Assembly (NCBI RefSeq): GCF_900095195.1
Contig: NZ_LT606950.1
Location: 300,001-332,000, forward strand
DNA from: Polynucleobacter necessarius
GTDB taxonomy: Bacteria > Pseudomonadota > Gammaproteobacteria > Burkholderiales > Burkholderiaceae
DNA length: 32,000 bases
Reading direction: 5' to 3'
Under the pieces are notes generated by a model that ran no database searches, was not told the DNA's origin, and saw only the letters and a program-made list of their open reading frames with translations. Positions 1-28,465 of the stretch are shown one piece after another (position 1 is the first letter of the stretch; every line of letters begins with the position of its first letter). Made by a program: the position numbers and the translations under genes.

Positions 1-312
1 TTCGTAGAATGCATCTGCTAAGGCAAGTGCGAAGTGCCGCTTCATCCATGCATGTTTATAAGAGGGCTTCTCGCTGACGGTCTCCGCTCTAGCGTTGTAA
101 GTTTTTCTGCCAAATTCTTCATCCTTTGCCCAGGAGGGTATCAGGCCGAAGCGAGCTGGTCCAATAGCGGTGCGTTGAGTGTTGTGACTCTTTAGGATAA
201 TCATTCCTGGGTAGGTGGGAAAAACATCGTGTGGGCTTGATGCCGATAGTGCGAGATCAAAATGGGTTTTTACCCAATCAACGTCCGCGGTGGTGAGGTA
301 CTGTACGCACAT
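1..312 (-). CDS. SOS-response-associated peptidase (SRAP/YedK family), N-terminal part; 3' end lies outside the window
   Basis: My minus-strand translation from ATG at 312 gives MCVQYLTTADVDWVKTHFDL...GLIPSWAKDEEFGRKTYNARAETVSEKPSYKHAWMKRHFALALADAFYE. It has the Met-Cys N-terminus and the IPSW...NARAET motifs typical of SRAP proteins. The frame is open to base 1. It is not in the ORF track because it is truncated by the window edge. Confidence 0.7.
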   Translation of the reverse strand, partial: MCVQYLTTADVDWVKTHFDLALSASSPHDVFPTYPGMIILKSHNTQRTAIGPARFGLIPSWAKDEEFGRKTYNARAETVSEKPSYKHAWMKRHFALALADAFYE

Positions 313-367
313 GTCCAGATTTTAATGCTTGCCTAGCTGGTAGTATTAGGGTTCCCTATCTGAAAGA

Positions 368-1081
368 TTGCTACACATGAAACTGAATATCACACCCTCT
401 ATCAAGCGTATTATCTCTATTGGTTTTTTATCCATCGCCTTATGTGGCGGCGCAAATGCCCAACAGAGTGGCTTGCCAATTAATGCTGCTGCTTCAGTCA
501 ATGACGCAATCGTTACAAACGATATGGTTGAACAAGGCATCAAGGCAGCCCTGGCTCAAGGTCAAAAAGATTCGCCCGAGTTGCGTAGGGCGGTGATTGA
601 AAAGTTCATTGAAGTCTTCTTGTTGTCCCAACAAGCTGAAAAAGATGGTACAGCAAGCAAGTAGTTTCATTAGGCCCACAGGGCATGATCAACGAATACA
701 AGATTAGTGACATTGCGGTTGCCTCTGAATCCGATGCGCAAGCCGCTTTAAATCGTATAAAAAAGGGGGGCTTTTGACAAGGTAGCAAAAAGTGTTTCAT
801 TAGCACCGAATAAGACACAAGGCGGGGCGGCAGGTTGGGTGCAACCTGGGCAAGTTCCTCCACAAATCTCAGCTGTATTGGTGAATCCTGGCAAAGGCCA
901 AACCTCCGCAGCGATTCAGATGCAGCAGGGCTGGTATTTGGTCAAACTGGAAGATAAGCGTTCCAGTAAGCCACCGACACTTGAACAAGCAAAGCAAGCT
1001 ATTCGTGCGGGCTTAGCTCAGAAGAAGCAATTTGAATTTATTTCTGGAATTGCCAAGAATTCAAAAATTGTTGTGCAGTAA
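368..1081 (+). pseudogene. Parvulin-type (PpiC/SurA-like) periplasmic peptidyl-prolyl isomerase, disrupted
   Basis: The N-terminal ORF 368-664 has a signal peptide (..SIALCGGANAQ) and a chaperone-like segment ending in a stop. The C-terminal ORF 839-1081 carries the end of a parvulin domain (GWYLVKLEDKR..). Between them the frames read EYKISDIAVASESDAQAALNRIKKGGF / DKVAKSVSLAPNKTQGGAAGW only after frame changes, one at the A6G6 run near 761-773. The linker between the two parts looks too short, suggesting an internal deletion. Confidence 0.7.
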
Positions 1082-1110
1082 GCAACAGTATTTAGAGGTC
1101 ATCGTGAAAT

Positions 1111-1136
1111 AAAAAGGGCTCCCGGGAGTCCTTTTT
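1111..1136. terminator. Putative bidirectional intrinsic terminator between the convergent PPIase pseudogene and folA
   Basis: The sequence is aaaaaGGGCTCCCGGGAGTCCttttt: a GC-rich hairpin (one G-T pair) flanked by an A-run and a T-run, directly after the folA stop (1135-1137). Confidence 0.5.
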
Positions 1137-1623
1137 ATTGACGCTCGAGAGTGACGAACTGAAAGTGAATATCGTTTTCGGATCCAGGCGTACGTTCTAC
1201 TTCTCTCCAGTCGTTGGGATTAGGTACTTCAAAGAATGTATCCCCGCCATCAATATCAAGATCGATTTCAGTAATGTATAAACGATCCGCTTTATCAAAA
1301 GCCTGCCTAAAAAGTTGTTCACCGCCAATTACAAAGACTCTAGGGGCTTTACTCAGTGCGTTGAGGGCCTCGTCTAGGGAGCCCACTAATTCTCCGTCGG
1401 TCAGCTCGTAGTCAGCATTGCGACTCACCACGATATTGCGTCGACCAGGAAGCGGGCGACCAATTGATTCCCAGGTCTTGCGACCCATGATGACGGGGTG
1501 ACCCATCGTGACACGCTTAAAAAATTGCAGGTCAGCAGAAATTTTCCAAGGCATTTGGTTGTCACGACCAATCACGTGATTCCGTGAGCGGGCAACAATT
1601 ATGGAGATAGCAGGTTGTGTCAT
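1135..1623 (-). CDS. folA: Dihydrofolate reductase
   Basis: 162-aa ORF containing ISIIVA..NHVIGRDNQMPW..DLQFFKRVTMGHPVIMGRKTWESIGRPLPGRRNIVVSR, the canonical DHFR signature. It sits next to thyA. Confidence 0.95.
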   Translation of the reverse strand: MTQPAISIIVARSRNHVIGRDNQMPWKISADLQFFKRVTMGHPVIMGRKTWESIGRPLPGRRNIVVSRNADYELTDGELVGSLDEALNALSKAPRVFVIGGEQLFRQAFDKADRLYITEIDLDIDGGDTFFEVPNPNDWREVERTPGSENDIHFQFVTLERQ

Positions 1624-1634
1624 AGGGCAATTTC

Positions 1635-2429
1635 TTAAACGGCTACAGGGGCTTTGATATGGGGGTGGGATTCGTAACCTACGATCTCAAAATCCTCAAA
1701 TTCGTAATCAAAAATAGAGTCGGGTTTGCGTAGGGTATTGAGTTTGGGTAACGGGAAGAAATCTCGAGAGAGCTGCAGATTCACTTGTTCTAGGTGATTA
1801 CTATACAAGTGGCAATCGCCGCCAGTCCAAACGAAATCGCCGACTTCGAGATTGCATTGCTGGGCCAGCATATGCGTTAACAAAGCATAGCTGGCAATAT
1901 TGAACGGAACTCCTAAGAAAATATCTGCACTGCGCTGATAAAGCTGGCAAGACAGTTTCCCATCTGCTACGTAAAACTGAAAGAAAGCATGGCAAGGCGC
2001 TAATGCCATACGGGGAATATCTGCAACGTTCCATGCAGAAACAATAATACGACGTGAGTCTGGATTCTTTTTGACTGTCTCCACTACTTCACTAATCTGA
2101 TCGATGTGTTGTCCATTAGGCGCAGGCCAAGAGCGCCATTGATAACTGTAAATTGGTCCCAAGTCACCATCTGGTGCAGCCCATTCGTTCCAAATGGATA
2201 CACCGCGCTCTTTGAGCCAATTGTTGTCTGTGCTGCCTTTAAGAAACCAAAGCAGCTCATAGATAATGGATTTGAGGTGCAGTTTCTTGGTTGTCACCAT
2301 CGGGAAACCGTCAGCCAAATTAAAGCGCATTTGGTGACCAAAGACAGACAGTGTTCCAGTACCAGTCCGGTCAGACTTTTTAACGCCGTTGGCTAAAACT
2401 TCCTTCATGAGATCGTGATATTGGCGCAT
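1635..2429 (-). CDS. thyA: Thymidylate synthase (ThyA type)
   Basis: 264-aa ORF with [26 protein letters not shown], the active-site [12 protein letters not shown], and the ending ..[10 protein letters not shown]. Full length relative to the usual 264-aa ThyA. Confidence 0.97.
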
Positions 2430-2489
2430 AGAAATTGACTAAAAGTGAATTGGTCGGTTTGTAAATTTTGGAATAGCTATAAGGGTAAC

Positions 2490-3531
2490 TTACTCGAGGG
2501 TAGTCGGCTTTACCCCAAGTACTTTATGCAGTTTAGGGGAGGTGGTGGTGTACTGAAGTTGAATCGGTTTTTCAGGATTCAGGTACGCGGCAGCAGCGAA
2601 AGCCGCTAATGCCGCCTCATGAAAGCCTGACAAAATCAACTTCTTCTTGCCGGGGTAGACATTAATGTCGCCGACAGCATAAATGCCCGGAATGCTTTTC
2701 TGAAATTTTTCTGTATCCACCACAATTTGTTTGCAATCAATATCCAGACCCCATTCGGCGATAGGGCCTAGTTTTGGGGATAGACCAAAAAATCAGAAGA
2801 TCATCTAAAGCGAGTTGTTTAGTGTTGCCGTCATTGTCCGTAAGAGTAATCTCGCTCAATTGGTCGTTTTGAATGTCATATCCAGTGATATGTCCAATGA
2901 AGAGATTTATCTTTCCAGAAGCACAAAGCTCTCGCATCTTTGCGATCGATTGTGGTGCTGCCTTAAAGTCGTCCCGTCGATGAATGAGGGTGACGCTTGC
3001 TGCTTTATCGGCAAAATATAAGACCCAGTCAATTGCAGAGTCGCCACCCCTGCAGATGGCAATGCGTTTGCCGATAAATTGGTCGGGTTGCTTCACGCGA
3101 TAGAACACGTTCTGATCTACATAAGCATCTAGACCCTCCAGATTCAGGGTTCTTGGCTGAAGAGCTCCTACTCCAGCTGCTATAAATAGCGTCTTCGTTA
3201 TAAAGCGCTGATCTTGTGAGGTGCGAATGAGGAAGCGGTCGTCGGATTGGCAATCGAGATGGGTGACTTCTTGTCCTAGATGAAGCTGAGGGTGAAACGG
3301 CTCAATTTGTTTCAGTAGATTATCGGTGAGCTCGCGACCAGTACAAACAGGGACGGCAGGAATGTCGTAAATCGGTTTATCGGGATACAGCTCAATACAT
3401 TGACCACCAGGTTCTGGTAAGGAATCAATGACGTGTGCGTTGATTTCAAGAAGTCCAAGCTCAAATACTTGGAAGAGGCCCACAGGGCCGGCGCCAATAA
3501 TGACTGCGTCAGCTTCTGTGGGTGGGTGCAA
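2490..3531 (-). pseudogene. Thioredoxin-reductase-like ferredoxin-NADP+ reductase (type 2 FNR), frameshifted
   Basis: The N-terminal 264-aa ORF (2737-3531) has the FAD motif [11 protein letters not shown] and EPGGQ. The C-terminal 77-aa ORF (2490-2723) reads [37 protein letters not shown]. The two are in different frames, and the join is near the A-run at about 2783-2790. The NADPH-motif region reads [11 protein letters not shown] rather than a clean GGGDSA. Confidence 0.8.
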
Positions 3532-3554
3532 AACGATACTCTTGGGTGATTAAA

Positions 3555-3878
3555 TTACTTTACGAGCTGATCCAGTTTATTTTTAACGTCTTTCCACTCA
3601 TCAGCATCTGGAAGAGCTGCTTTGGATTTGGTGATCGACGTCCATGACGGCGCGAGTTCGGCATTCAGCTTAATGAACTCTTGTTGATCGCCAGGTACAT
3701 CATCTTCTGCGTAAATAGCATTGACGGGGCACTCAGGAACGCAAACGGCGCAGTCGATGCACTCATCCGGATCGATCACTAGGAAATTAGGGCCTTCACG
3801 AAAGCAATCAACTGGGCAAACATCAACGCAGTCGGTGTATTTGCAGCGAATACAAGATTCAGTAACAACGTAAGTCAT
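3555..3878 (-). CDS. fdxA: 7Fe ferredoxin (FdxA type, [3Fe-4S][4Fe-4S])
   Basis: [60 protein letters not shown].. is the classic Azotobacter-type ferredoxin I pattern. I place the start at the internal Met (3878) rather than the ORF-track start at 3953. Confidence 0.92.
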
Positions 3879-3977
3879 GGTGTTTAATCGAATTAGCCCG
3901 CGATTAAGGGTTATTAGGTTATAAAACATTAATTTTAGCCGAAATGCCCTCATTTACTGAGGTAAAGTTTCCCCTTA

Positions 3978-5003
3978 TGAATACCCACAAAATACCCAAA
4001 CTACCCCCCAAAACGCCTCTCAGAAGCCCAAAATCTTGGTTGCCAGGGCTATTTTTCCTGAAGCGTTGGCAAAACTAAAAGAATCGTTTGAGGTGCTGGC
4101 AAACCAGGAAGACCAGATCTTGAAGCCCTGAGGAGTTACAAAATGCGCTCTCAGGCGTGGCGGTGCATTAGTTGCAGGAAGTAAACGCATAGACGCAAAT
4201 GCTTTAGCAATGGCCAAAGATTTAAAAATCGTTCCCAACATTTCAGTGGGCTATAACAATTTTGATGTATCTGCCATTACTGCGGCTGGTGTCATGACAA
4301 CCAATACACCCGATGTGTTGACCGATACTACCGCTGACTTTGGTTTTGCTTTGCTCATGGCAACAGCGCGGCGTATCACCGAATCAGAGCATTGGGTGCG
4401 CGCTGGCCATTGGGACAAATGGTCGATTGTGAATAACCCACTCGGTATGGATTTGCATCACAGCACAATCGGCATCATTGGTATGGGACGGCATTGGACA
4501 GGGTGTTGCTAAACGAGCATTGGGTTTTGGCATGAATGTGATTTATCACAATCGCAGTCGTTTATCGGAAGCGGATGAGAGGGCATGTGGCGCACGCTAC
4601 GTATCAAAAGAAGAAATTACTACGAACTGTGGATCACGTGGTCCTGGTATTGCCATATACCGCCGAAAGCCATCACACCACTGGAGCTGAAGAGCTTGCC
4701 TTCATGAAACCCACGGCAACCCTTATCAATATTGTTCGTGGCGGGATTGTTGATGACTTGGCTTTGGCGCAAGCCCTGAAAGAAAAACGAATATTTGTTG
4801 CTAGTCTAGATGTATTTGATGGGGAGCCAAACGTGAATCCTGAGTTACTCAAATTGAGCAATGTTGTTCTAGCTCCGCACATTGCGAGCGCGACTGAAAA
4901 AGCCCACAGAGCCATGGTGGACCTCGCAATCGAAAACTTGCAAGCAGCGTTGGCCGGGAAAAAACCGCCCAGCTTAATTAATGCTGAGGCATTTAAAGGG
5001 TAG
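3978..5003 (+). pseudogene. D-isomer-specific 2-hydroxyacid dehydrogenase (glyoxylate/hydroxypyruvate reductase-like), multiply frameshifted
   Basis: Recognisable segments lie in three different frames: KILVARAIFPEALAKLKESFEV (about 4020-4100), AKDLKIVPNISVGYNNFDV..TTADFGFALLMATARR (4210-4512), GIGQGVAKRALGFGMNVIYHNRS (4478-4690), and VVLVLPYTAESHHTTGAEELAFMKPTATLINIVRGGIVDDLAL..APHIASAT (4575-5003). The NAD motif GIIGMGRIG is split by a frameshift near 4490. Confidence 0.8.
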
Positions 5004-5048
5004 CACTTGTTTCTTGCTTTCGAAAAGGTTGCCGGAGAATATCAATGA

Positions 5049-5342
5049 TTACTCGGCATCTACTTCTTCTGGTAAATCGCGTAGTGCTAGCTCAACGCCA
5101 CCGAATTTTTCAGCAACCCAGTTATAGACTTTGCAAGCAATCCACAGCAAGGCAAAACCCAGTAACGCATTGAGAATTAATGCGGACAAAACGGTAAATC
5201 CAGGGATTGCACCATCTCTGATGAGGGCAACGAATAATGCCAACAGCACGATGGGCACTGAGAAGCAGAGGTAAACCAATACCAGTGTTTTAGCGGTATG
5301 GGTTGGATCGAGAAAGGCGAGTTCTTTTTTGGTAAGTTTCAT
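5049..5342 (-). CDS. Small hypothetical membrane protein (two predicted TM helices)
   Basis: Open frame reading MKLTKKELAFLDPTHTAKTLVLVYLCFSVPIVLLALFVALI...LNALLGFALLWIACKVYNWV. It has two hydrophobic stretches and an acidic tail, and I recognise no family. Start chosen at the Met just downstream of the moeA stop. Confidence 0.45.
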   Translation of the reverse strand: MKLTKKELAFLDPTHTAKTLVLVYLCFSVPIVLLALFVALIRDGAIPGFTVLSALILNALLGFALLWIACKVYNWVAEKFGGVELALRDLPEEVDAE

Positions 5343-5355
5343 GATGACCGCAATC

Positions 5356-6612
5356 TTAAAGCAGTCCATCAAAAAGCGCTATATCTACTAGGTCACCCGG
5401 AGCAACATTTCCTTGGTCGTGACCCAGAATGACAAAACAGTTTGCCTCGCTCATGGAGCGCAAAATGCCCACCCCTTGACTGCCAGTCAGTCGCACACTT
5501 GGCTTGCCATCAGCATTGCGCCCCAAGATGGCGCGTTGAAATTCGGTGCGACCAGGTTTCTTACGAATCGCTGTTTCGGCAATCGCTTGAACTAGTGGAG
5601 GCATTGTTTGAGTGGCCCCATTGAGTTGCAGCAGTGCGCTGCGAACGAGCTGATAAAAAGTCACCATAACGGCAACAGGGTTACCTGGTAAACCAAAAAA
5701 TAGGGTTTTGCGGGCAGGCGATTTTCCAGAAGCCAACATCACCCAGTTCTTGCATGATTTGTTTGGTGAAGTCTGCTTCACCAACAGAGACGCCACCAGA
5801 TGAAATTAATACATCGGCTTTAGAGACTGCTTCGATGAATGCTTGTTTTAGTGAAGCAGGATCATCACGCACAATTCCACAATCGATAATGTCTAGATCT
5901 AGACGATTGAGTAAGCCAGTAAGACTGTAACGATTGCTGTCATAGATGCTGCCAGGATCCAGGGTCTGACCCAAGGAACGTAATTCATCTCCCGAAGACA
6001 AAATAGCGACTTTGAGCTTGCGCCGAACATGAAGCGTGGCGATACCAAGGGATGCTGCCAATCCTAAATCCGAGGGTCGCAATAACCGACCAGCAGCAAT
6101 TGCAGGTTTGCCTTGTTGTAAATCCTCGCCACGCAGGCGACGATTTTCCCCTGCCTTCAATTGATTTGACTGAAATCGAACGAATTGATTGTCGTTGCTC
6201 GTTGTGAATTCCTGAGGGATCACGGTGTCGCAATCCGCAGGCATGACGGCGCCTGTCATGATTTTGAGGCATTCACCTTGAGCAATTTTGCCCTCGTAAG
6301 GTTTGCCAGCCAAAGCAGTGCCAACAATCTTTAATGAGATCTCAGCGCTATTTTGATTCAGGCATTGGCCATTAAATACAAAGCCATCCATCGCTGAGTT
6401 ATCAGCAACGGGACATCAATGGGTGAAAGGAGATCGCGCGCTAGAACCCGATTAATTGCTTGATCTAGTGGAACACTCTCGATATCGGCAGGATCATTGA
6501 TTGCAGCGGATTCTTGGAGTAATTCATCGACAAGATCTGCAATCGCCTGACGAGCTTCATCAACATGAAGTGATGACGTCAGCAAGATGGGGTTATTGGG
6601 AGAATGCTTCAT
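5356..6612 (-). pseudogene. moeA: Molybdopterin molybdenumtransferase MoeA, at least two frameshifts
   Basis: Three overlapping ORF pieces in different frames: 6358-6612 (..LSPIDVP..), 5681-6391 (MDGFVF...GAVMPADCDTVIPQE...SGDEL...SSGGVSVGEADF..) and 5356-5796 (..FGLPGNPVAVMVTF..RTEFQRA..SGILRSMSEANCFVIL). Frame changes are near 6405 and near 5720. Confidence 0.88.
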
Positions 6613-7212
6613 GCTGAAATGGCTTCTAGTGATTTCAATTCTTCTAGAGTATTGACGTTTGCAAATACTTGCTCATCGTCGAATACGACAGTGCTGCTCT
6701 TAATTTCTTGAAACCAACGATCAATTTTGAAATCGCCTTTACGCAAAAAAGCATCCAACGATTCTTGTAAATTAGCGCGCATTAGGCAGAACACTGGTTG
6801 TGCCCAAACCCTGTCATCGACACCTTTGGTCGAGGCATAAACCAATTGAAAATCGCCACGTTCAAGTTCGGCGGTAAGCTTTATGCCGAGATTTTGGGGC
6901 AATAGCGGTGAGTCACAGGGTGTGGTTAGTAGGTATGGTTTTACAGGCCTTGAGCCCCACCGAGAATCCTGCAAGTGGCCCAGAAAAATCGGGGGTCTCA
7001 TCCAGAATTACTGGGTAGCTATAGACGGCGTATTTGGTGATATTACGGTTGGCGTTAATCAGGATGGATCCAACCTGGGGCCTTAGGCGGGAGATGGTCG
7101 ATTCAATTAAGGGTTTTTGGTGAAATGGAATTAATCCTTTATCGATTCCGCCCATTCGTTGGGCACGACCGCCAGCCAGAATGAGTCCGGTTATATTTTT
7201 AGCAGTAATCAT
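6609..7212 (-). pseudogene. mobA: Molybdenum cofactor guanylyltransferase MobA, frameshifted
   Basis: The N-terminal piece 6913-7212 reads ITGLILAGGRAQRMGGIDKGLIPF. The C-terminal piece 6609-7001 reads ..YLLTTPCDSPLLPQNL.. in another frame. The frame change is near 6960. The stop overlaps the moeA start (ATGA at 6609-6612). Confidence 0.88.
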
Positions 7213-7213
7213 T

Positions 7214-7915
7214 AGCCACCAATGTAAGACATTTCAACTTTACGAGAATTGGATTTCAGACCTTCCGTTTGCGAGCCCCGAATTTCAGAATAGTGATTAT
7301 TGCGTCCAGACCAGGTATTCATGATGGCGTTCGCAATTTCTAAATCGGTTTTATCAGAGCGCAATAAGGATTTGAAACAAACCCCTCATTCGCAAACAAA
7401 CATAGATACATTTGGCCATCAGTAGAAATGCGTGCACGCGTGCATTCATGGCAGAAGGTTTGTGTCACGCTGGATATCATCTGATTCATCTGCATAACGC
7501 CAACGCTGGGCTACCTCACCAGGGTAGTTTGGTTCCATTGACTCCAGCGGAAATGTTGCATGGATCCTCGAGATAACCTCTTTAGATGGCAATACTTTTG
7601 CCATATTCCAACCATTCGAGCTACCAACGTCCATAAATTCGATGAAGCGCAAAATAATACCGCTGCCCTTGAAATGGTTTGCCATTGGCACGATCTCGTG
7701 ATCGTTCGTTCCTTTTTTCACCACAATATTGACTTTGATGTTCTCAAAGCCAGCGTCTTGCGCGGCAGCAATGTCATCCAAAACATCGGCCACCGAAAAT
7801 CAACATCGTTCATTTTGCGAAAGATGTCATCGTTCAAACCATCGAGACTGACGGTTAGCCTTTGCAATCCCGCTGCTTTTAAGGAAACTGCTTTTTTGCG
7901 CAAGATGCTACCACC
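7214..7915 (-). pseudogene. moaA: GTP 3',8-cyclase MoaA, C-terminal about two-thirds, multiply frameshifted and severed from its 5' part by an inversion
   Basis: Minus-strand reading: [40 protein letters not shown] / [56 protein letters not shown].. / ..[22 protein letters not shown] / [33 protein letters not shown]...KVEMSYIGG*. The Gly-Gly C-terminus is typical of MoaA. At least four frame changes are needed (for example near 7795, 7445 and 7385). Confidence 0.88.
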
Positions 7916-7977
7916 CGCTTCAAAGCGCTTGGATCTGCCGATAACTCCACTTGAGGTAAAACTTGATTACGATTCAT
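7916..7977 (-). pseudogene. yceD: yceD (DUF177) 5' fragment, first 21 codons, left behind at the inversion junction
   Basis: Minus-strand ATG at 7977 gives [21 protein letters not shown], then the reading abruptly becomes moaA sequence. It continues in frame with the yceD remainder at 15443 (..KR|DFCAPQ..). It is divergent from maf, as yceD is in E. coli. Confidence 0.6.
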
Positions 7978-8029
7978 GACATCAGTCCAAATCAAGGCAA
8001 GTGCAAAATCTGCAGTAATCACTAAATTC

Positions 8030-8626
8030 ATGAGTTCATCGAATAACCCACCGTTAATTTTGGCATCCACTTCGGTCTACCGTCGCGAGCTTTTAACTCG
8101 CTTACGCATTCCATTCGAAGTGGTCTCACCCAAGGTCGATGAGACACCACTTACTGGCGAGACCACGCTGGACCTAGCGTTGCGATTGGCGAACGCCAAA
8201 GCTGCAGCAGTTGCAAAAATACACCCCGATACCTGGGTCATTGGCTCTGATCAGGTTGCCGATCTTTGTGGTGCTGCGATAGGTAAACCCGGAAATTTTG
8301 ATAGAGCGCTTGCACAACTTCAACTCATGCGCGGGCAAACCATCACCTTTCATACTGCACTCTGCTTGATGAAAAACGATGTTCACACCACCCTGAGCAT
8401 TCCCACGGAAGTGACTTTTCGCAAACTCTCCGACGATGTTCTAGAGAATTATTTGCGCGCAGAAGAGCCCTACGACTGCGCGGGAAGCGCAAAGTCTGAA
8501 GGCCTCGGAATCAGTCTATTGGAGGCGATTAAAAGCGATGATCCAACCGCCCTAATTGGCTTGCCACTCATTGCGCTGACGGGTTTATTGCGAGATGCAG
8601 GTTTCGCTATTCCGGCTACCAAATAG
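8030..8626 (+). CDS. maf: Maf-like nucleoside triphosphate pyrophosphatase (YceF subfamily)
   Basis: PLILASTSVYRRELLTRLRIPFEVVSPKVDETP...VIGSDQV...GKP...YDCAGSAKSEGLGISLLE matches the Maf family signatures. Start taken at the Met at 8030, not 7976. Confidence 0.88.
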   Translation: MSSSNNPPLILASTSVYRRELLTRLRIPFEVVSPKVDETPLTGETTLDLALRLANAKAAAVAKIHPDTWVIGSDQVADLCGAAIGKPGNFDRALAQLQLMRGQTITFHTALCLMKNDVHTTLSIPTEVTFRKLSDDVLENYLRAEEPYDCAGSAKSEGLGISLLEAIKSDDPTALIGLPLIALTGLLRDAGFAIPATK

Positions 8627-8629
8627 ATT

Positions 8630-9400
8630 ATGGCAACGCTCGGCACACTCTATTTAATTCCGAATACTTTAGGCAATGACGCTCGTGCAGAGCAATTACC
8701 TTGGGTCTTATCAAGTGAGACGATTGCCTGTACTGCAAAGCTGCGGCATTGGATTGCCGAAGATGCTAAAACAGCGCGGGCATTTTTAAAAGCAATCGAT
8801 AGCATCTCACCACTCGCTTGCGCCATTCAAGAAATGCAAATGTCGGAATGGCGCGGCACATCCCGTCATGCAAAGTATGGTGACGCCGTTAAACCTGCTG
8901 ACTTACTCAAACCATTACTGGCTGGTAACGATATGGGTTTGATGTCCGAAGCAGGTGTTCCAGGCGTCGCTGATCCTGGTGCTGAATTGGTTCTCGCGGC
9001 CCATCGCTTCTGTGCGCAAGTCAAACCATTAGTGGGGCCAAGCTCGATCCTGCTTGGCCTGATGGCAAGTGGTCTTAACGGTCAGCGCTTTGCTTTTCAA
9101 GGCTACCTCCCGCAGGGAGCTCCAGAGCGAAGCGCCAAACTCAAACAACTTGAGACTGAGTCCCGCAAATTGAAACAAACCCAGATTTGGATCGAGACGC
9201 CGTACCGCAATACCGCCATGCTGCTGGCGTGCACTCAAGCGTTAGCACCGCAAACATTGCTTTGCCTTGGTGTAGACCTTAGCCTTCCATCGGAGATGAT
9301 TGCCACACTCTTCATTGCAGAGTGGCGCAAGCGCTACCCAAATGAAGCGGCCTGCGCAGCACTACAAAATAGGCCAACGGTATTTCTGCTGTTGGCCTAG
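8630..9400 (+). CDS. Tetrapyrrole-methylase-fold SAM-dependent methyltransferase (RsmI-like)
   Basis: 256-aa ORF with GTLYLIPNTLGN at the N-terminus, SEAGVPGVADPG, GPSSILLGLMASGLNGQRFAFQGYLP and IWIETPYR, a pattern like the RsmI/YraL-type methylase family. Confidence 0.75.
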   Translation: MATLGTLYLIPNTLGNDARAEQLPWVLSSETIACTAKLRHWIAEDAKTARAFLKAIDSISPLACAIQEMQMSEWRGTSRHAKYGDAVKPADLLKPLLAGNDMGLMSEAGVPGVADPGAELVLAAHRFCAQVKPLVGPSSILLGLMASGLNGQRFAFQGYLPQGAPERSAKLKQLETESRKLKQTQIWIETPYRNTAMLLACTQALAPQTLLCLGVDLSLPSEMIATLFIAEWRKRYPNEAACAALQNRPTVFLLLA

Positions 9401-9429
9401 TGATTCATTCATTAAATATATTCTGACTA

Positions 9430-10377
9430 TTACTTGAGGTCTGGTGATTTGACCAAGGCCTTGCCCGCTGCTGCACCTGCCTCAGCACCAAAACGTTTGG
9501 CGACGCGCTCCGCAAAGTTTTCTTTCATGGTGTAGTCCAGTACATCGGGCGCCTTAAAGATGTCGCGAGCAACCGAGTCAACTGTGCCATAACCATCTAC
9601 CAAGCCCAACTTAACTGCCTGCTCACCATTCCAAATGCGACCTGAAAATAAATCGGGTGCATCCTTTAAGCGATCACCACGACCCTCTTTCACTACCTGA
9701 ATAAATTGTTGGTGAATTTCGTCGATCATCTTTTTCACCATCTCGACTTGCTTGGGCTCTTCCTTGCTAAAAGGATCGAGCATGCCTTTGTTTGATCCAG
9801 CGGTAATCATGCGTCGTGTGACGCCCAACTTATCCATCAAACCAGTAAAACCAAAGCCCTCCATGATCACTCCAATGGAACCCACCAAGCTCGCTTTATC
9901 GACCAGAATTTGATCTGCGGCAACCGCCGCATAGTAACCACCGGATGCGCAGATATCCTCCACCACTACATAAAATGGCTTCTTGGGATAAAGCTTACGT
10001 AAGCGGTGAATCTCATCATTAATCATGCCCGCTTGAACTGGCGAACCCCCTGGACTGTTTATGCGCAAAATGACGCCGGCACTATGTTCATTTTCAAATG
10101 CCGATACCAAAGAAGAATTGATATCCATCGCATTGGCCATCGAGCTAGATGAGATTTCTCCCTCCAAAGTCACCATCGCTGTATGTCGCTCAACGCCCAT
10201 GCCACGACCAGGAATATGAAAATCAAATACCACGAGCACCACTGCAATAATCACCAACAAAGTCAGTACACGAAGTACCGCTTTCCAGCGACGCGCCTTA
10301 CGAGTCTCTTTGAGATTCTCTAAGAGCAAATATTCTAGGGCTTGACGCTCCCAGTTTGGATTGGAGTTATTTTCCAT
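9430..10377 (-). CDS. sppA: Signal peptide peptidase SppA, 36K type (S49 family)
   Basis: It has an N-terminal TM segment (VLTLLVIIAVVLVVF), then ILRINSPGGSPVQAG...CASGGYYAAVAADQI...GSIGV. Start placed at the Met at 10377, just after the upstream gene's stop at 10388. Confidence 0.88.
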   Translation of the reverse strand: MENNSNPNWERQALEYLLLENLKETRKARRWKAVLRVLTLLVIIAVVLVVFDFHIPGRGMGVERHTAMVTLEGEISSSSMANAMDINSSLVSAFENEHSAGVILRINSPGGSPVQAGMINDEIHRLRKLYPKKPFYVVVEDICASGGYYAAVAADQILVDKASLVGSIGVIMEGFGFTGLMDKLGVTRRMITAGSNKGMLDPFSKEEPKQVEMVKKMIDEIHQQFIQVVKEGRGDRLKDAPDLFSGRIWNGEQAVKLGLVDGYGTVDSVARDIFKAPDVLDYTMKENFAERVAKRFGAEAGAAAGKALVKSPDLK

Positions 10378-10387
10378 ATGGATTCCT

Positions 10388-11050
10388 CTATAGATTCTTT
10401 TCAAGCCATTGAGCCAGTTGCGGAACATCATCGACATGCGCAAGCGATGGCGATGCTTTTAACGTATCTGGTGGGTGGGCACCATAGGTCACCGCAATGG
10501 CATCAACGCCGGCATTGGCTGCCATATCTAAATCGTGAGTCGTATCCCCGATCATCAACATCCGACGCGTAGGCACTTGGGTTGCATCGGATAGCTCGAG
10601 CAGCATTCCCGGATGGGGTTTGGAGAAAGACTCATCCGCTGTGCGTGTTTCGTGAAAGAGATGTCCAATCTGATGGTGCTTAAGCGAACGGTCTAGACCA
10701 ACGCGCGATTTGCCAGTAGCTACCCCCAAGAGATACTGATCGCTTCGGAGCTTTTCTAGTAACTCACGAATACCCACAAACAAATCCAGTTCGTGATCTT
10801 TTGCTAAATAGTGATAACGAAAACGATCCGTCAACTTTGGAAAGTGCACTGGTTCAATCCATGGGACTGCGCGTCGCAACGAATCCTGGATGCCTAACCC
10901 AATCACCGAGCTGGCCAAAGAATCATCCGGCTCTTGAAAACCCAAATCGCGGCACACTTGCTGAATGCAGTGCACGATCGTTGGCGTGGAATCCATAATC
11001 GTGCCGTCCCAATCCCAAATAGCGACGATTGGCTTCGATCCTTCAGACAT
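10388..11050 (-). CDS. HAD-superfamily hydrolase (phosphoglycolate-phosphatase-like)
   Basis: 220 aa with motif I (AIWDWDGTIMDS), motif II (GVATGKS) and motif IV (MIGDTTHDLDMAANAG). It sits downstream of rluC, as in many Burkholderiales. Confidence 0.85.
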   Translation of the reverse strand: MSEGSKPIVAIWDWDGTIMDSTPTIVHCIQQVCRDLGFQEPDDSLASSVIGLGIQDSLRRAVPWIEPVHFPKLTDRFRYHYLAKDHELDLFVGIRELLEKLRSDQYLLGVATGKSRVGLDRSLKHHQIGHLFHETRTADESFSKPHPGMLLELSDATQVPTRRMLMIGDTTHDLDMAANAGVDAIAVTYGAHPPDTLKASPSLAHVDDVPQLAQWLEKNL

Positions 11051-11073
11051 TGTTCATGCGTTTCAGTTGCGTT

Positions 11074-12081
11074 TTATTGCTCAAAATTTTGCATCATGGC
11101 AGTAAATTCTGCTGGCAGCGGTGATTCAATTCGCATCTTTTCACCAGTACGAGGGTGCGTAAAACCCGCCAAGTGTGCATGCAAATATAAGCGCTTCGAT
11201 TTAATAAGCTTATCTTGGTCTTCAAATCCATATTTATCGTCGCCCAAAATCGCATGACCTAATTTTTGCAGATGTACCCGAATTTGATGAGTGCGGCCCG
11301 TTTTCAGCTGCGCCTCAGCCAGCGTCATGGCAGCGTCTGCGCGCGTAAATATTTTGGTAACACGCAAAGCCGTATGGCTGGGTAATCCATCGGGATCCAC
11401 TCGCACCCTTCTCTCACCATTGGCAAGGAGATATTTATGCAAAGGGTATTTCAATTGCATCACTTGCGCACCCTGCTGAATTTCACCGTGTGCCAGTAAA
11501 TAGTAGCGCTTGTCCGTTTGACCCTCACGAATTTGGCGATGCAATTCCACGAGCGCACTGCGCTTTTTTGCCAGCAGCAATACTCCGGAAGTATCGCGAT
11601 CGAGGCGATGAACCAATTCCAAGAATTTCAATTTTGGTCGAGCAATCCGCAACGCCTCAATTACACCCAAGGCAATCCCGGAGCCGCCGTGTACCGCCAA
11701 TCCAGCAGGCTTATCCACAATTAGTAATGCCTCATCCTCAAACAAAATGGGCATCTTCTCAGAAAAGCCTCGGGCACGAGATTTGGTTTTGGCAGTATTA
11801 ACTGCCGCCATTTGGGCTGGCTCGGCAATTCGGACCGGGGGAATTCGTACAACATCTCCCTCAATCAAGCGAGTCGTTGGCTCAGCCCGTTTTTTGTTAA
11901 TCCGAACCTCACCCGAGCGAATAATCCGATAAACGTGACTTTTGGGGGCTCCTTTGGCCCAACGCAGTAAATAGTTATCCAAACGCTGACCAGCTTCCTC
12001 TGGACCAATGGTTTGCAAATGGACTGCAGCGGGAGGGGGCGTTTTTACCTTGGAAGGCTTGGATACTGGGTCGGATTTCAT
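11074..12081 (-). CDS. rluC: 23S rRNA pseudouridine synthase C (RluA family with S4 domain)
   Basis: 335 aa with an S4-like QRLDNYLLRW..., the catalytic HRLDRDTSGVLLLAKK, and TGRTHQIRVHL. It is divergent from rne, the conserved arrangement. Confidence 0.92.
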   Translation of the reverse strand: MKSDPVSKPSKVKTPPPAAVHLQTIGPEEAGQRLDNYLLRWAKGAPKSHVYRIIRSGEVRINKKRAEPTTRLIEGDVVRIPPVRIAEPAQMAAVNTAKTKSRARGFSEKMPILFEDEALLIVDKPAGLAVHGGSGIALGVIEALRIARPKLKFLELVHRLDRDTSGVLLLAKKRSALVELHRQIREGQTDKRYYLLAHGEIQQGAQVMQLKYPLHKYLLANGERRVRVDPDGLPSHTALRVTKIFTRADAAMTLAEAQLKTGRTHQIRVHLQKLGHAILGDDKYGFEDQDKLIKSKRLYLHAHLAGFTHPRTGEKMRIESPLPAEFTAMMQNFEQ

Positions 12082-12541
12082 GATTTTGCTCCCTTGTCGC
12101 CTCGGAAAAAGACGATAAGGGACTCAACAATACCCCATTGTCATTCAACTTATGCCGTACAATCAACGCTCTAGCCAATTTATTCGCTAGATACCCGCCA
12201 AAAAAATGGCGTGAATTGTGGGGCTTGGAGTCGCCTTTTAATAGACTCTCGGGGTTGCCCCTCCCCCGTTGCAATGAGGCACAGGGTTGGTGTGCCGTAT
12301 GCCGCGACCCGCGATTAGATGACAGTTTTCAGGCGCGCGCCTGCATGGATGACCTAAAGGAGGTCTCTGCGGCGATCGTCAAGTGTGGCACCGATTTAAC
12401 CAACAGTTAACGAGGTGAACTAGGAAAAAAGTGCCTTATTTGCATGATCCACACTCATACACCGCCATAGGCTTGCCTATGCGGCCAATAACTGACCCCT
12501 AACGCATCGCGCTACTCCCACCTCCCCCATAGGAGAGTGTT
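12082..12541 (+). promoter_or_regulatory. rluC-rne divergent intergenic region, containing the rne promoter(s) and a long structured 5' leader
   Basis: About 460 bp are non-coding upstream of rne. Several local hairpins are visible: GGCAC-aggguugg-GUGCC near 12279-12298, the GGCGCGCGCC palindrome near 12332-12341, GACCU-aaagg-AGGUC near 12351-12365, and CAUAGG-cuug-CCUAUG near 12466-12481. A TACAAT -10-like hexamer lies at 12158-12163 and an AGGAG RBS at 12531-12535. E. coli rne is autoregulated through a long 5' UTR. Confidence 0.55.
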
Positions 12542-15154
12542 ATGAAACGCATGTTGTTTAATGCAACTCAACAAGAAGAGTTGCGAGTTGCCATCGTCGA
12601 TGGTCAAAAACTCATTGATATTGATATCGAAGCTGCCGGTCGTGAACAACGTAAAGGCAATATCTACAAAGGTGTTATCACCCGCATTGAGCCCTCTTTA
12701 GAGGCCTGCTTTGTGAACTACGGCGAGGAGCGTCATGGCTTCCTCCCCTTCAAAGAAGTTGCCAGAGCCTATTTCAAAGAGGGTATTGATGTGCGCAATG
12801 CGTCCATTAAGGATGCCCTGCGTGAAGGTCAAGAAATTATTGTTCAGGTAGAAAAAGAAGGGCGTGGCCAAAAAGGTGCCGCCCTCACCTCTTTTATCTC
12901 TTTAGCGGGTCGTTACTTGGTGTTAATGCCCAACAAACCACGGGGTGGTGGCGTCTCCCGTCGCATTGAAGGCGAAGACCGTCAAGAACTGCGCGAAGCC
13001 ATGGCTCAATTAGAGGTGCCTGATGGCATGAGCATCATTGCCCGTACTGCTGGTATTGGTCGTGATGCTACCGAATTGCAGTGGGACTTAAGCTACCTCT
13101 TGCAATTGTGGAAAGCCATTGATGAAGCTGCTAAGGGCAATTCAGCCCCGCTATTGATTTACCTCGAGTCCAGCTTGGTGATTCGTGCGATCCGCAATTA
13201 CTTCCAACCGGATATTGGCGAAATCCTGATCGATACCGATGACATTTACGAGCAAGCTGCTGCCTTTATGTCGGTGGTGATGCCAGATAACTTGCCACGA
13301 GTAAAGCGCTATCAAGATGATGCGCCGCTCTTCTCACACTTCCAAATTGAACATCAGATTGAGATTGCCTATTCACGCACTGTGCCACTACCATCGGGTG
13401 GCGCGATTGTGATTGACCACACTGAAGCACTTGTTTCTGTAGACGTGAACTCTGCACGCGCTACCCGCGGTTCCGATATTGAAGAAACAGCGACTCGCAC
13501 AAATTTAGAAGCTGCCGATGAAATCGCCCGACAAGCCCGTTTGCGCGACTTAGGCGGCTTGATCGTGATTGACTTCATTGATATGGAGTCCAGCAAGGCT
13601 CAGAAGGATGTTGAGAATCGCCTACGCGATGCTCTGCGTCATGACCGTGCGCGCGTTCAAATGGGCAAGATCTCTAAGTTTGGCTTGATGGAAATGTCCC
13701 GCCAACGTTTGCGCCCAGCGTTATCCGAAGGCAGTCATGTCACCTGCCCACGTTGCAATGGCACTAGTCACATTCGTGATACCGAATCTTCTGCATTGCA
13801 AGTTCTACGCATCATTCAAGAAGAGGCAATAAAAGAAAACACAGCGGCGATTCATACGCAGGTTCCAGTCGAAGTGGCTGCGTTCCTGCTCAATGAAAAG
13901 CGTGCAGAAGTCATCAAGATTGAGACTCGCTTCAAAGTTAATGTCTTGTTAGTACCGAATAAGTATTTAGAAACACCGCACTATAAGTTAGAGCGTTTGC
14001 GTCATGATGATCCTCGTTTGGATGATCAAAAGGCTAGCTATGTCATGTCTGAAGAAGCAGCACGCGAATTAGAAACTGACACTACAGTTAGTCGTAAAGA
14101 TGCGGATGTAAAAGCGCGTCCTGAAGCTGCAGTCAAAGGCATCACCCCAACGCAACCAGCACCAATCAGTCAGCCGCAGCCAGCACGCGCTGAGAAGGCT
14201 GCTGGCGAGAGTTCTGGTGGTTTCCTTGGTTTCATTAAGAAACTCTTCACCTCCAGCCCAGCTGCAGAAGAAAAACCTTCACCAAGTAATGGCCGTGGTC
14301 GCAACCAAGGGCGTAATGGTGATCGTAATCGCGGTCGCAATCGTCGCGGTGAGCGCAACGGTGATCGTGCAGAGCGCTCCGCAGCAAATGCTGGAGAGGG
14401 TACTACTGAAACTAATAGCAATCGTGGCCGCAACAACCGCAACGGCAACCGTAACCAAAACAATCAAAGTAACCAAAATGGCCCGAAACCAGAACGTCAA
14501 GCGAATCCCGCTGCCGTAACGCCTGCCACCGAAGCAACTCCTGGTAGTGAAACAACTTCAACGGCTGATAGCGATGAGCGTCGCGGTCGTGGATGTAACC
14601 GAAATGATCGTGGTGAGCGCACCGAAATTGGTGATGGCGCAACTGCGGCAACAGCCGCCCCATCTGCAAGTCCTTTTAGAAGGCCTCCCGTTGGTATGGC
14701 CGGCGCATCCGTTTCAATGCCGATTCAAAACATTGTCAATAGTTTTGGTGATAATCTGGTTGCCGAAAAATCTGAGCGCAACGAGAGGCCAGCACGCGCA
14801 CCGAGTCAATCAAATCGTTCTGAAAAAACTGCTGGCTCAGCATCATCAGCAGCACCAGTAGCACCGCTTGCAGTTGTAGCTACTGCAACAGCGATTGAAG
14901 TGATTGCAAAACCAGCGCCAGAACTGCCAAAAGTTGCTTTTCAAGCGCTTGAAGAAACGCCATTGCATAGCGTTGTGCAATCCGCTGGAATGATTTGGGT
15001 CGCTACCGATGCTTCGAAGCATACAGAAGCGCAAAACCAGATTCAGTCTGAACCCGTCATTCATAACGTCGGCAGAACACCAAAGCCAGCGGCCACGCTT
15101 CCAGAAGGCCCAATGGTTCTAGTTGAAACTGGCGGCCAAGAAAAAACGGTCTAA
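12542..15154 (+). CDS. rne: Ribonuclease E
   Basis: 870-aa ORF. The N-terminal half is canonical (MKRMLFNATQQEELRVAIVDGQKL.., an S1 domain, VIDHTEALVSVDVNS, LGGLIVIDFIDM, Zn-link CPRCNGTS). The C-terminal half is low-complexity and Arg/Asn/Gly-rich (GRGRNQGRNGDRNRGRNRRGERNGDR; NRGRNNRNGNRNQNNQSNQNG). Confidence 0.95.
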   Translation: MKRMLFNATQQEELRVAIVDGQKLIDIDIEAAGREQRKGNIYKGVITRIEPSLEACFVNYGEERHGFLPFKEVARAYFKEGIDVRNASIKDALREGQEIIVQVEKEGRGQKGAALTSFISLAGRYLVLMPNKPRGGGVSRRIEGEDRQELREAMAQLEVPDGMSIIARTAGIGRDATELQWDLSYLLQLWKAIDEAAKGNSAPLLIYLESSLVIRAIRNYFQPDIGEILIDTDDIYEQAAAFMSVVMPDNLPRVKRYQDDAPLFSHFQIEHQIEIAYSRTVPLPSGGAIVIDHTEALVSVDVNSARATRGSDIEETATRTNLEAADEIARQARLRDLGGLIVIDFIDMESSKAQKDVENRLRDALRHDRARVQMGKISKFGLMEMSRQRLRPALSEGSHVTCPRCNGTSHIRDTESSALQVLRIIQEEAIKENTAAIHTQVPVEVAAFLLNEKRAEVIKIETRFKVNVLLVPNKYLETPHYKLERLRHDDPRLDDQKASYVMSEEAARELETDTTVSRKDADVKARPEAAVKGITPTQPAPISQPQPARAEKAAGESSGGFLGFIKKLFTSSPAAEEKPSPSNGRGRNQGRNGDRNRGRNRRGERNGDRAERSAANAGEGTTETNSNRGRNNRNGNRNQNNQSNQNGPKPERQANPAAVTPATEATPGSETTSTADSDERRGRGCNRNDRGERTEIGDGATAATAAPSASPFRRPPVGMAGASVSMPIQNIVNSFGDNLVAEKSERNERPARAPSQSNRSEKTAGSASSAAPVAPLAVVATATAIEVIAKPAPELPKVAFQALEETPLHSVVQSAGMIWVATDASKHTEAQNQIQSEPVIHNVGRTPKPAATLPEGPMVLVETGGQEKTV

Positions 15155-15169
15155 GGCTTTTTCTTTTTC

Positions 15170-15442
15170 TCCAGACCGCCTCGTATCCCAAAAGGATATT
15201 GGGCGGTTTGGCAGAAACTCCGTTTCACAGATCAAAACTATTCGTATTTAGCACACAAAGAATTACTCAGTTTTGAAGAAATTACCCGCCTGTCCAACAT
15301 CTTCGCAACCCTGGGCGTTGAAAAGATTCGCCTAACCGGTGGCGAACCGCTGCTTCGTAAGAACTTAGAAGTATTAATCGAAATGTTGGCTGCCGTCCGC
15401 ACTCCAGCAGGCAAACATTTGGGTCTCACCTTCACGACTAAC
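15170..15442 (+). pseudogene. moaA: moaA 5' fragment, with radical-SAM region partly deleted, separated from the rest of moaA by the inversion
   Basis: Plus-strand reading gives ..[70 protein letters not shown], which is the MoaA N-terminal half directly after the rne stop. No TGT/TGC codon occurs on the + strand in 15155-15290, so the CxxxCxxC cluster motif is absent. The left boundary is approximate. Confidence 0.8.
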
Positions 15443-15950
15443 GGATTTTTGTGCTCCGCAGACCTATCAAGGTGCTGGTTTTTTAGGCATCTCGGATCTG
15501 CCCAGGCTGGCTGAGGAAGTTTCTACAGTTGCATCAGGGGACGGCTTTAATTGGGAAGTTCAAACCCATTTTGGGATTCCCCGGGGGTTGAGCCCCGTCA
15601 AATCTGCAATTAGGCCTCAACGGGCGCCTACATCTGATATGCCAGCGGTGTTTACAGGATTGCGCTGTAGATTTAGCTGAAAAACGGCGTTTTATCATTC
15701 TGGCAACTGAAGAAGAGGCGGATCACTATCCAGTAGAGGACGAGGACCAAGAGCCCTTGGTTGCCAGTCAGCAATTTAACTTTTGGAGACCATTGAGGAT
15801 GAAATTTTGCTCTCTATCCCTTTGATTCCAAAGCATCCCGAGGGCTTTTGTGAGTCCCATCTCCTGGCTTTGGGGGGCGAAGAGCCTGAAGAAGTTTCTT
15901 CTGAACGGGAAAATCCCTTTAACATATTGAAAAATATGAAGAAAAACTAA
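15443..15950 (+). pseudogene. yceD: yceD (DUF177, 23S rRNA accumulation protein) 3' portion, frameshifted
   Basis: It reads [40 protein letters not shown].. / ..LHLICQRCLQDCAVDLAEKRRFIILATEEEADHYPVEDEDQEPLVASQQFN / LETIEDEILLSIPLIPKHPEGFCESH..ENPFNILKNMKKN* across three frames. Frame changes are near 15600 and 15785. It lies immediately upstream of rpmF, as yceD always does. Confidence 0.8.
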
Positions 15951-16035
15951 ATTTGGGATGCCGCTTTTGGCTTTTGGGATGCCCCGTTGTTTTTGCTCAC
16001 TTCATTGATAAATCAAGCATTTAGACGCTTTTCCG

Positions 16036-16044
16036 TGCTAGAAT
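16036..16044 (+). promoter_or_regulatory. Candidate extended -10 promoter (TGcTAGAAT) for rpmF-plsX-fab
   Basis: TGCTAGAAT lies 24 nt upstream of the rpmF ATG, and AGGAG is at 16057-16061. I find no convincing -35, which is tolerable for a TGn extended -10. Prediction by eye only. Confidence 0.35.
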
Positions 16045-16067
16045 GTCGCCTTATTTAGGAGTTCATT

Positions 16068-16247
16068 ATGGCCGTTCAACAAAATAAAAAATCACCTTCC
16101 AAACGTGGCATGCATCGTGCGCACGACTTTTTGACCGCACCTGCTACGGCTGTTGAAGCCACTACTGGTGAGGCTCATTTGCGCCACCACATTTCACCTA
16201 ACGGCTACTATCGTGGTCGTAAAGTTGTTAAAACCAAAAACGACTAA
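16068..16247 (+). CDS. rpmF: 50S ribosomal protein L32
   Basis: My translation is [59 protein letters not shown] (59 aa). It is below the ORF-track length cutoff. It has the canonical L32 N-terminus and the expected position between yceD and plsX. Confidence 0.95.
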
Positions 16248-27718: not shown

Positions 27719-28453
27719 ATGGCTTCGATTTGCATTGCTGACGAGCCTGCTTTTGTATTGCACAGTATTCCCTATAAAGAAACCAGTCTCATATTAGACG
27801 TCTTTACCAGACAGCATGGTCGCATGGCGTTGATCGCAAAAGGTGCAAAACGTCCACATTCAACACTACGCCCAGTCTTACAGCGCTTTCAGCCACTACT
27901 GGTTTCTTGGAGTGGTAAATCGGAATTGCGTACCTTAACTAAATCTGAGTGGGTGGGTGGGATGCCCTCATTGGTTGGTGATGCCTTGCTTTGTGGTTTC
28001 TATCTCAATGAATTATTGGTGAAATTTCTGGCGCGTGAGGATGAGCACGAGAAACTCTACGATCGTTATGCCGAGACAATTAATGCGTTATCGAATCTCG
28101 AATTTGAATCCAAGGGTTTAGAGGAAATTCTGCGTCCTTTCGAACTCTCGCTATTACAAGAGGCTGGCTATGCTGCTGCCCTAGATCGCTGCGTGGAAAC
28201 CAACGATCTTCCAGACGCTGAAACGGAATATGTTTACCAGCCTGAGCGAGGGGTGCGTCCGGCGCAAGCTGATGATCCTGGGCATTGGCCTGTTCTGAAG
28301 GGCCAATCCTTGTTGGCGATTGCGGCAGGTGATTTTTCAGATCTGCAGACTCTTTCTGAGAGTAAGCAATTGATGCGTTTTCTATTGGGTTTGCATTTGC
28401 ATGACCAAGTTTTAACGACACGTCAAATTTTGATAGATCTCAAGAAAATCTAG
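27719..28453 (+). CDS. recO: DNA repair protein RecO
   Basis: 244 aa reading AFVLHSIPYKETSLILDVFTRQHGRMALIAKGAKRP.., the RecO N-terminal OB-fold pattern. It holds the conserved position after era. Confidence 0.88.
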   Translation: MASICIADEPAFVLHSIPYKETSLILDVFTRQHGRMALIAKGAKRPHSTLRPVLQRFQPLLVSWSGKSELRTLTKSEWVGGMPSLVGDALLCGFYLNELLVKFLAREDEHEKLYDRYAETINALSNLEFESKGLEEILRPFELSLLQEAGYAAALDRCVETNDLPDAETEYVYQPERGVRPAQADDPGHWPVLKGQSLLAIAAGDFSDLQTLSESKQLMRFLLGLHLHDQVLTTRQILIDLKKI

Positions 28454-28465
28454 TAATCTATAGGC

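Follow-up and report, generated by a model that had tools for sequence, protein, structure and literature searches.

Few-kilobase inversions within the chromosome, with no mobile elements involved, have been described in chemostat cultures of Salmonella, where every spontaneous inversion confirmed by experiment was bounded by short inverted repeats and where junction homology of at least 12 bp was the cut-off deduced for true inversions (PMC3411829). Exchange by a type II topoisomerase (DNA gyrase), proposed by Ikeda and co-workers, is a classical candidate for bacterial illegitimate recombination, and it joins unrelated duplexes reciprocally without homology, repeats or elements (summarised in PMC11164529). 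Rearrangements brought about by insertion sequences (ISs) or repeats are also known from recently host-restricted symbionts. Polynucleobacter necessarius is an obligate endosymbiont of Euplotes ciliates, and we analysed 32,000 nucleotides of its genome (positions 300,001 to 332,000 of contig NZ_LT606950.1, assembly GCF_900095195.1; hereafter the window), in which the genes moaA and yceD are broken and exchanged. This locus very probably records a recent 7,534-bp inversion that is private to one P. necessarius lineage, was independent of homology, and was neutral and fixed by drift.

The inversion is few-kilobase and intrachromosomal like those of Salmonella and likewise involves no mobile elements, but the Salmonella inversions end in short inverted homologous repeats whereas that of the window ends in a 2-bp overlap. 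With gyrase-type exchange it shares the reciprocal joining of unrelated duplexes; known examples of that type are mostly plasmid–phage or excision events, whereas the present case is a fixed chromosomal inversion. The setting is the same as that of the symbiont rearrangements, namely an obligate symbiont of recent origin in which pseudogenes are many, selection is relaxed and a gene-disrupting rearrangement became fixed. Unlike those rearrangements, however, the window junctions carry no IS, transposase, target-site duplication or repeat.

In the window, moaA (GTP 3′,8-cyclase) and yceD (DUF177) each exist as two halves, about 7.5 kb apart and on opposite strands. Along the minus strand from 7977 to 7911, the first 22 codons of yceD/DUF177 switch without a gap into the middle of moaA (..AAGCGGGTGG/TAGCATCTTG.., the slash marking the breakpoint), and on the plus strand downstream of rne the 5′ part of moaA switches into the continuation of yceD at 15444/15445 (..ACGACTAACGG/ATTTTTGTGC..). 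The inverted segment covers window 7911–15444, 7,534 bp at maximum, or 7913–15442 at minimum, with the shared GG/CC counted as flank. It contains maf, a methyltransferase gene, sppA, a HAD hydrolase gene, rluC and rne, together with the 5′ ends of yceD and moaA. The parts of the rearrangement are as follows; L084 and L085 are contigs of an uninverted sister strain introduced below.

7911..15444, no strand: inverted segment, from blastn orientation against 80 relatives and the sister strain (L084/L085) and from GC skew
7911..7912, no strand: left junction overlap, CC on the plus strand (GG on the minus strand), 2 nt common to both parental sites
15443..15444, no strand: right junction overlap, GG, 2 nt common to both parental sites
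7911..7977, minus strand: yceD 5′ fragment (22 codons plus G), from nucleotide alignment to intact yceD of relatives and L084
15445..15950, plus strand: yceD 3′ fragment with stop codon at 15948–15950, from Pfam and alignment
15230..15444, plus strand: moaA 5′ fragment, from Pfam and nucleotide alignment
7212..7910, minus strand: moaA 3′ fragment, from Pfam and nucleotide alignment

A scan of a genome collection with RluC gave 80 Polynucleobacter loci for comparison. In blastn alignments to these loci, window 1–7913 was collinear (+), 7913–15444 was reversed (−) and 15444 onward was collinear again (+), wherever the locus was long enough. When the segment was re-inverted, the junction sequences aligned straight across the breakpoints, in 51 of 51 loci for moaA and in 70 of 71 for yceD, and all 48 free-living Polynucleobacter loci with both sites on one contig were uninverted. 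In 70 of 72 relatives the site lies within a full-length yceD open reading frame (ORF) of 191–195 aa; the ORFs of the remaining two are shorter, at 173 and 34 aa. An intact moaA is present in 51 of 52 relatives, with another symbiont genome as the exception. A second symbiont genome, LT606949.1 (about 76–80% identical), is also uninverted and has an intact yceD of 191 aa. Since all relatives examined are uninverted, the window holds the derived state.

The ancestral order extends beyond the genus. In E. coli K-12 (b1084–b1095) the genes follow as rne(←) rluC(→) yceF(maf)(←) yceD(→) rpmF plsX fabH fabD fabG acpP fabF, and the rne–rluC–maf–yceD–rpmF–plsX–fab neighbourhood of E. coli and of the relatives has the same order as the window after re-inversion. 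An earlier note, made from the letters of the window alone, had proposed that re-inversion restores the K-12 order from rne to fabF; both free-living Polynucleobacter and E. coli K-12 bear this out, and the uninverted arrangement with intact moaA and yceD that the note asked to be sought by alignment indeed exists in free-living relatives. In comparison with E. coli, Polynucleobacter has three extra genes between rluC and maf (HAD hydrolase, sppA and methyltransferase) and has moaA–mobA–moeA downstream of rne, and in the strain of the window the block is broken inside yceD.

The state before the inversion was also found at close range. A sister strain was recovered as a 19.4-kb contig of Logan SRR32119647 (L084, through a look-up of Maf) and as a 184-kb contig of ENA ERZ27248707 (L085, through a look-up of the sister Rne). 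It is uninverted in both assemblies, which differ from each other at 4 positions in 16.6 kb. Identity of its DNA to the window was 98.98% in the segment and 99.00% in the flank. Import of the segment by horizontal replacement in reverse orientation was also considered, and is ruled out by this equal divergence of segment and flank together with the exactly reciprocal breakpoints.

With the sister strain and the relatives, the breakpoints could be placed to the base. The two parental sites are ..AACGG/TAGC.. in moaA and ..GTGG/ATTT.. in yceD, in two genes that are read on opposite strands. Across the breakpoint the relatives read ..ACTAACGG/TAGCATC.. in moaA (TTNGSIL) and ..GCGGGTGG/ATTTTTGT.. 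in yceD (LKRVDFC), and the pre-inversion sequences of the sister strain are ACTAACGG/TAGCATC and GCGGGTGG/ATTTT, of which the window junctions are the exact crosswise products. The joins first proposed for the restored genes are in frame, but each is 3 nt off. The moaA join ACTAAC/GGTGGTAGC would give TTNGGSIL instead of TTNGSIL, whereas all relatives have ..ACTAAyGGyAGCATC.. with no additional GGT codon; the yceD join TTGAAGCG/GGATTTTTGT would give LKRDFC, leaving out a Val/Ile codon that is present in all relatives (..CGGGTGGATTTTTGT.., LKRVDFC). Correspondingly, the interval 7916–15442 of the earlier note is 3–5 nt off and becomes 7911–15444 (at least 7913–15442), while its central points, the split of two genes and the reciprocity of the exchange, are retained.

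At the corrected breakpoints the exchange is exactly reciprocal, with zero bases gained or lost, and neither restored gene has a window-specific indel at its junction. The bases common to the two parental sites are GG/CC only, and adjacent bases match at random level; that no bases were lost or gained and that GG alone is shared had been stated before, and the parental sites of the sister strain and relatives agree. By calculation, from (k+1)(1/4)^k(3/4)^2 summed over k ≥ 2, microhomology of at least 2 nt is expected in about 16% of random reciprocal joins. Because a 2-nt overlap arises this often by chance, it is no evidence for homology-guided joining.

Two perfect 8-nt palindromes, TTGCGCAA (7896–7903) and AAGCGCTT (7923–7930), flank the left junction at distances of 8 and 12 nt, and one of them adjoined each ancestral breakpoint. 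There are 129 such palindromes in the window; that both sites should have one nearby has a probability of about 0.016, a value computed post hoc after the palindromes had been noticed.

As to mechanism, no IS element, transposase or recombinase ORF was found at the junctions or in the 32-kb window, there is no target-site duplication or repeat, and no inverted repeat has an arm at each junction, in agreement with repeat and ORF checks that support the earlier statement on this point. All stretches flanking the junctions align to housekeeping genes of relatives. Homologous, repeat-mediated inversion was rejected for want of inverted repeats (usually at least 12 bp) at the ends; IS- or transposon-mediated inversion, for want of an IS copy, transposase or target-site duplication at the junctions; and a programmed invertible switch of the Hin/Gin/Fim type, for want of flanking inverted repeats and of a nearby invertase gene. 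As these three kinds of inversion fail in their defining features, a conservative, homology-independent break-and-join is what remains. We infer that illegitimate recombination is the mechanism, which fits the junction anatomy. Two sites, one in an already frameshifted moaA and one in yceD, were cut and their ends rejoined crosswise, probably in a homology-independent (illegitimate) and conservative manner. Candidate routes would be an exchange of topoisomerase type, or a pair of double-strand breaks, staggered or blunt, whose ends were religated without resection. The product would then have been a neutral rearrangement that drift fixed while genes decayed in a small population confined to its host.

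Serine-type recombinases make 2-nt staggered cuts and need both sites to have an identical central dinucleotide, in inverted orientation. A real inversion made by such a conservative site-specific enzyme on cryptic sites would explain why the exchange is perfectly conservative and why the sole shared bases are a 2-nt GG/CC in inverted orientation, and it would also suit the sister strain, where this locus underwent another event of inversion type. Two breaks religated without resection and a 2-nt-stagger enzyme on cryptic sites would fit the 2-nt overlap equally well. Nevertheless, microhomology of this length comes by chance at the rate calculated above, the sites have no flanking inverted repeats and are not recognisable as such, and no recombinase gene lies within the window, and we regard an enzyme of this kind as very unlikely.

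The second event of the sister strain is an independent illegitimate event of inversion type at the moa locus (L085 13419–13459, equal to L084 16217–16257). There, the regions corresponding to window 5497–7369 and 7410–7605 are deleted and the 41 nt between them (7370–7409, in moaA) are kept in inverted orientation; in all, the sister strain has lost about 2.1 kb (5497–7605), and it also carries small indels not seen in the window. A bolder idea, to which we give little credence, is that IS-free Polynucleobacter symbionts have an active conservative, homology-independent strand exchange, resembling that of a topoisomerase or serine recombinase and with a 2-nt stagger, by which decaying loci are rearranged time and again. 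If true, the 2-nt reciprocal inversion of the window and the inverted 41-nt remnant of the sister strain would be two footprints of that activity.

A fixed one-off inversion, which we prefer, can also be set against a reversible or polymorphic orientation, that is an invertible segment or a standing polymorphism. Nothing speaks for it directly; the sister strain has the other orientation. The segment has no inverted repeats and no invertase, its breakpoints cut coding sequences that are intact in relatives (yceD in 70 of 72, moaA in 51 of 52), and the two strains are about 1% apart throughout, as separate lineages are and phase variants are not. Such a polymorphism is thus improbable in the extreme.

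The strand composition speaks to the age of the inversion. GC skew is +0.04 to +0.09 in the window flanks and −0.055 in the segment, and the same segment has +0.038 ± 0.009 in 48 relatives. Since the skew is reversed only inside the segment, with roughly the magnitude of the relatives, and has not re-equilibrated, the event is recent. The inversion is younger than the split from the sister strain (about 1% divergence).

Several observations weigh against a recent, homology-independent inversion and have to be set beside it. A 2-bp inversion junction is unusual in comparison with Salmonella. Gyrase cuts are staggered by 4 nt; a plain gyrase exchange should leave a 4-nt footprint unless repaired, and none is seen, only the 2-nt overlap. 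The inversion is present in a single assembly only, exact look-ups of the window RluC, FabH and Rne returned no further contig or assembly of the inverted strain, and a metagenome scan gave 0 matches to the left junction. For the right junction, a 21-mer had 3 exact metagenome matches without other similarity to the window, which were discarded as chance matches. A mis-oriented contig would show identical reversed GC skew. Moreover, polarised substitutions in the segment, counted in ancestral orientation, were C>T 8 and G>A 5 in the window lineage and 18 versus 7 in the sister, counts too small to settle the matter. The substitutions of the window lineage still resemble the ancestral strand bias, as would be expected of an artefact or of a very recent event, and lean to the latter.

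These observations bear most on the possibility that a 7.5-kb piece was mis-oriented in the public P. necessarius assembly and that the chromosome is uninverted, as it is in the closest strain (99% identity) in two assemblies. The inversion is present in one assembly only, and the GC skew and the weak substitution polarity are as expected if the segment had never replicated in its present orientation. On the other hand, both joins are seamless, free of Ns and within unique coding sequence; each is the exact reciprocal of the other, with a 2-nt overlap, and the ends have no inverted repeat by which an assembler could be misled or a graph path flipped. That two chimeric joins should arise independently and yet match each other to the base is very improbable. 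The indel calls of the window also seem sound, since its intact genes, about 9 kb, show 0 indels versus the sister. An assembly error is therefore unlikely, and we hold it very likely, with a confidence at least equal to that in the interpretation as a whole, that the inversion is real.

The decay of the moa locus gives the order of events. The moaA fragments align continuously, at the nucleotide level, to the intact moaA of relatives. Pfam Radical_SAM positions 26–85 end at the right junction, and positions 91–121 resume at the left junction, followed by 128–164 and Mob_synth_C; this collinear match across the junctions answers the profile check suggested at the outset. A deletion private to the window at 15229/15230 (204 nt versus free-living relatives, 218 nt versus L085) has removed the moaA start codon and the CxxxCxxC iron–sulfur motif. 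In addition, there is a −1 frameshift at about 7796, which is common to the window and the uninverted sister strain, a −11 at about 7481, for which sharing is not established as the sister strain is without this region, and a −1 at about 7378, which is absent from the inverted 41-nt remnant of the sister. With its motif and start codon deleted and several frameshifts, moaA of the window is a pseudogene. Because the uninverted sister strain, 99% identical, has the frameshift at about 7796 as well, moaA was dead before the inversion and was not destroyed by it. The other genes of the locus are also decayed.

6609..7212, minus strand: mobA pseudogene, with −2 at about 6939
5356..6612, minus strand: moeA pseudogene, with −1 at about 6413 and −59 at about 5719

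Between the rne stop codon and moaA (15155–15229), all relatives have a conserved leader with a 10-bp stem (CCAGACCGCC..GGCGGTTTGG), and the window deletion begins just past it. Rfam searches of the window and of four related loci returned no family, including for this rne–moaA hairpin leader (no Moco riboswitch) and the rne 5′ region. In LT606949.1 (L087, 6857–7803 and 796–1569), sppA is split into two ORFs, moaA is truncated and yceD is intact; separate P. necessarius symbiont lineages are losing different genes of the rne–yceD neighbourhood.

The yceD reading frame in the window is not intact, being split by the inversion and interrupted by three private −1 frameshifts at about 15573, 15604 and 15779. 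Two 3′ pieces match PF02620, at positions 8–60 (23.8 bits) and 61–119 (27.6 bits), so that the suggested DUF177 check covers positions 8–119, each piece being under the gathering score of 33.2; the 5′ fragment 7977–7911 is taken in by the full-length alignment to yceD (191–195 aa) of 70 relatives. The sister strain has its own yceD frameshifts (−1, −3 and −1, with in one of the two assemblies also a +1 compensating the first), and no yceD lesion is common to the two strains. Window and sister differ by 6 indels in the 573 nt of yceD and by 0 in about 9 kb of rne, rluC, sppA, methyltransferase, maf, rpmF, plsX, fabH and fabD. As indels are clustered in yceD in both lineages, the gene was probably already free of constraint, that is under relaxed selection in this symbiont clade, though it is intact in LT606949.1. 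The earlier note was right that the inversion split yceD, but that it destroyed the gene is an uncertain and overstated claim, since the sister has frameshifts of its own; in the window lineage the frameshifts may have come before or after the inversion.

Sister yceD differs by one base between L086 5355 and L085 5355, one of the two having a +1 that restores the frame 12 nt after the −1. This one-base difference between sister assemblies may be a within-population polymorphism.

In contrast to the two genes at the boundaries, the six complete genes in the segment are all intact. These genes, and rpmF beyond the right junction, are as follows.

7976..8626, plus strand: maf, intact, with the NCBI start at 8030 (198 aa), divergent from the yceD start
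8630..9400, plus strand: SAM-dependent methyltransferase (NCBI name), intact
9430..10443, minus strand: sppA-like Peptidase_S49, intact
10388..11050, minus strand: HAD-family hydrolase
11074..12081, minus strand: rluC, 335 aa, intact
12542..15154, plus strand: rne, 870 aa, intact, with no indel versus the sister strain
16005..16247, plus strand: rpmF (16068–16247) and its conserved upstream block, outside the inversion, 65 sequences aligned

The rne gene moved together with its own upstream intergenic region and, by GC skew, passed from the C-rich to the G-rich (leading) strand. The essential rne was flipped, as had been pointed out, but the gene is intact with its own upstream region and now lies on the leading strand by GC skew. 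Downstream of yceD, the non-coding block upstream of rpmF (16005–16067) hardly varies among 65 Polynucleobacter sequences, and within it TGCTAGAAT stands some 30 nt ahead of the start codon. Judging from conservation alone, rpmF–plsX–fab probably has its own promoter in this block. Scans for consensus promoters and terminators around the two junctions gave no more than shuffled sequence would lead one to expect, and returned no rpmF promoter site. Since the intact genes keep their own upstream regions (the rne leader, maf, and the rpmF–plsX–fab block), the rearrangement would have been effectively neutral.

The relatives have a hairpin and then a T-run between yceD and the conserved rpmF upstream block. 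At the other end, the yceD start (7977, minus strand) and the start of the longest maf ORF (7976, plus strand) overlap back to back, and with either maf start the divergent promoters of yceD and maf must lie inside each other's 5′ regions. The breakpoint at 7911 precedes the annotated maf start (8030) by 119 nt. Further genes are decayed elsewhere in the window (1–5500 and 28453–29226): the C-terminal piece alone of a 2-hydroxyacid dehydrogenase survives (4575–5003), 7 indels separate window and sister in 648–4887, and pdxJ (28453–29226) matches profile positions 126–234 only.

This locus offers no new mechanism or system; it is a well-resolved instance of a known event type, in a genome whose gene decay was already known, and a worked example of early symbiont genome erosion. 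Its value lies in the fact that the states before and after the event are both available at 99% identity, and therefore the breakpoints, the missing homology and the order of the event relative to gene decay can be read directly. The case shows that no mobile elements are needed to break a neighbourhood conserved from E. coli to Polynucleobacter when selection on the genes at its boundaries is relaxed. In addition, the inversion is a dated marker for strain relationships among Euplotes symbionts.

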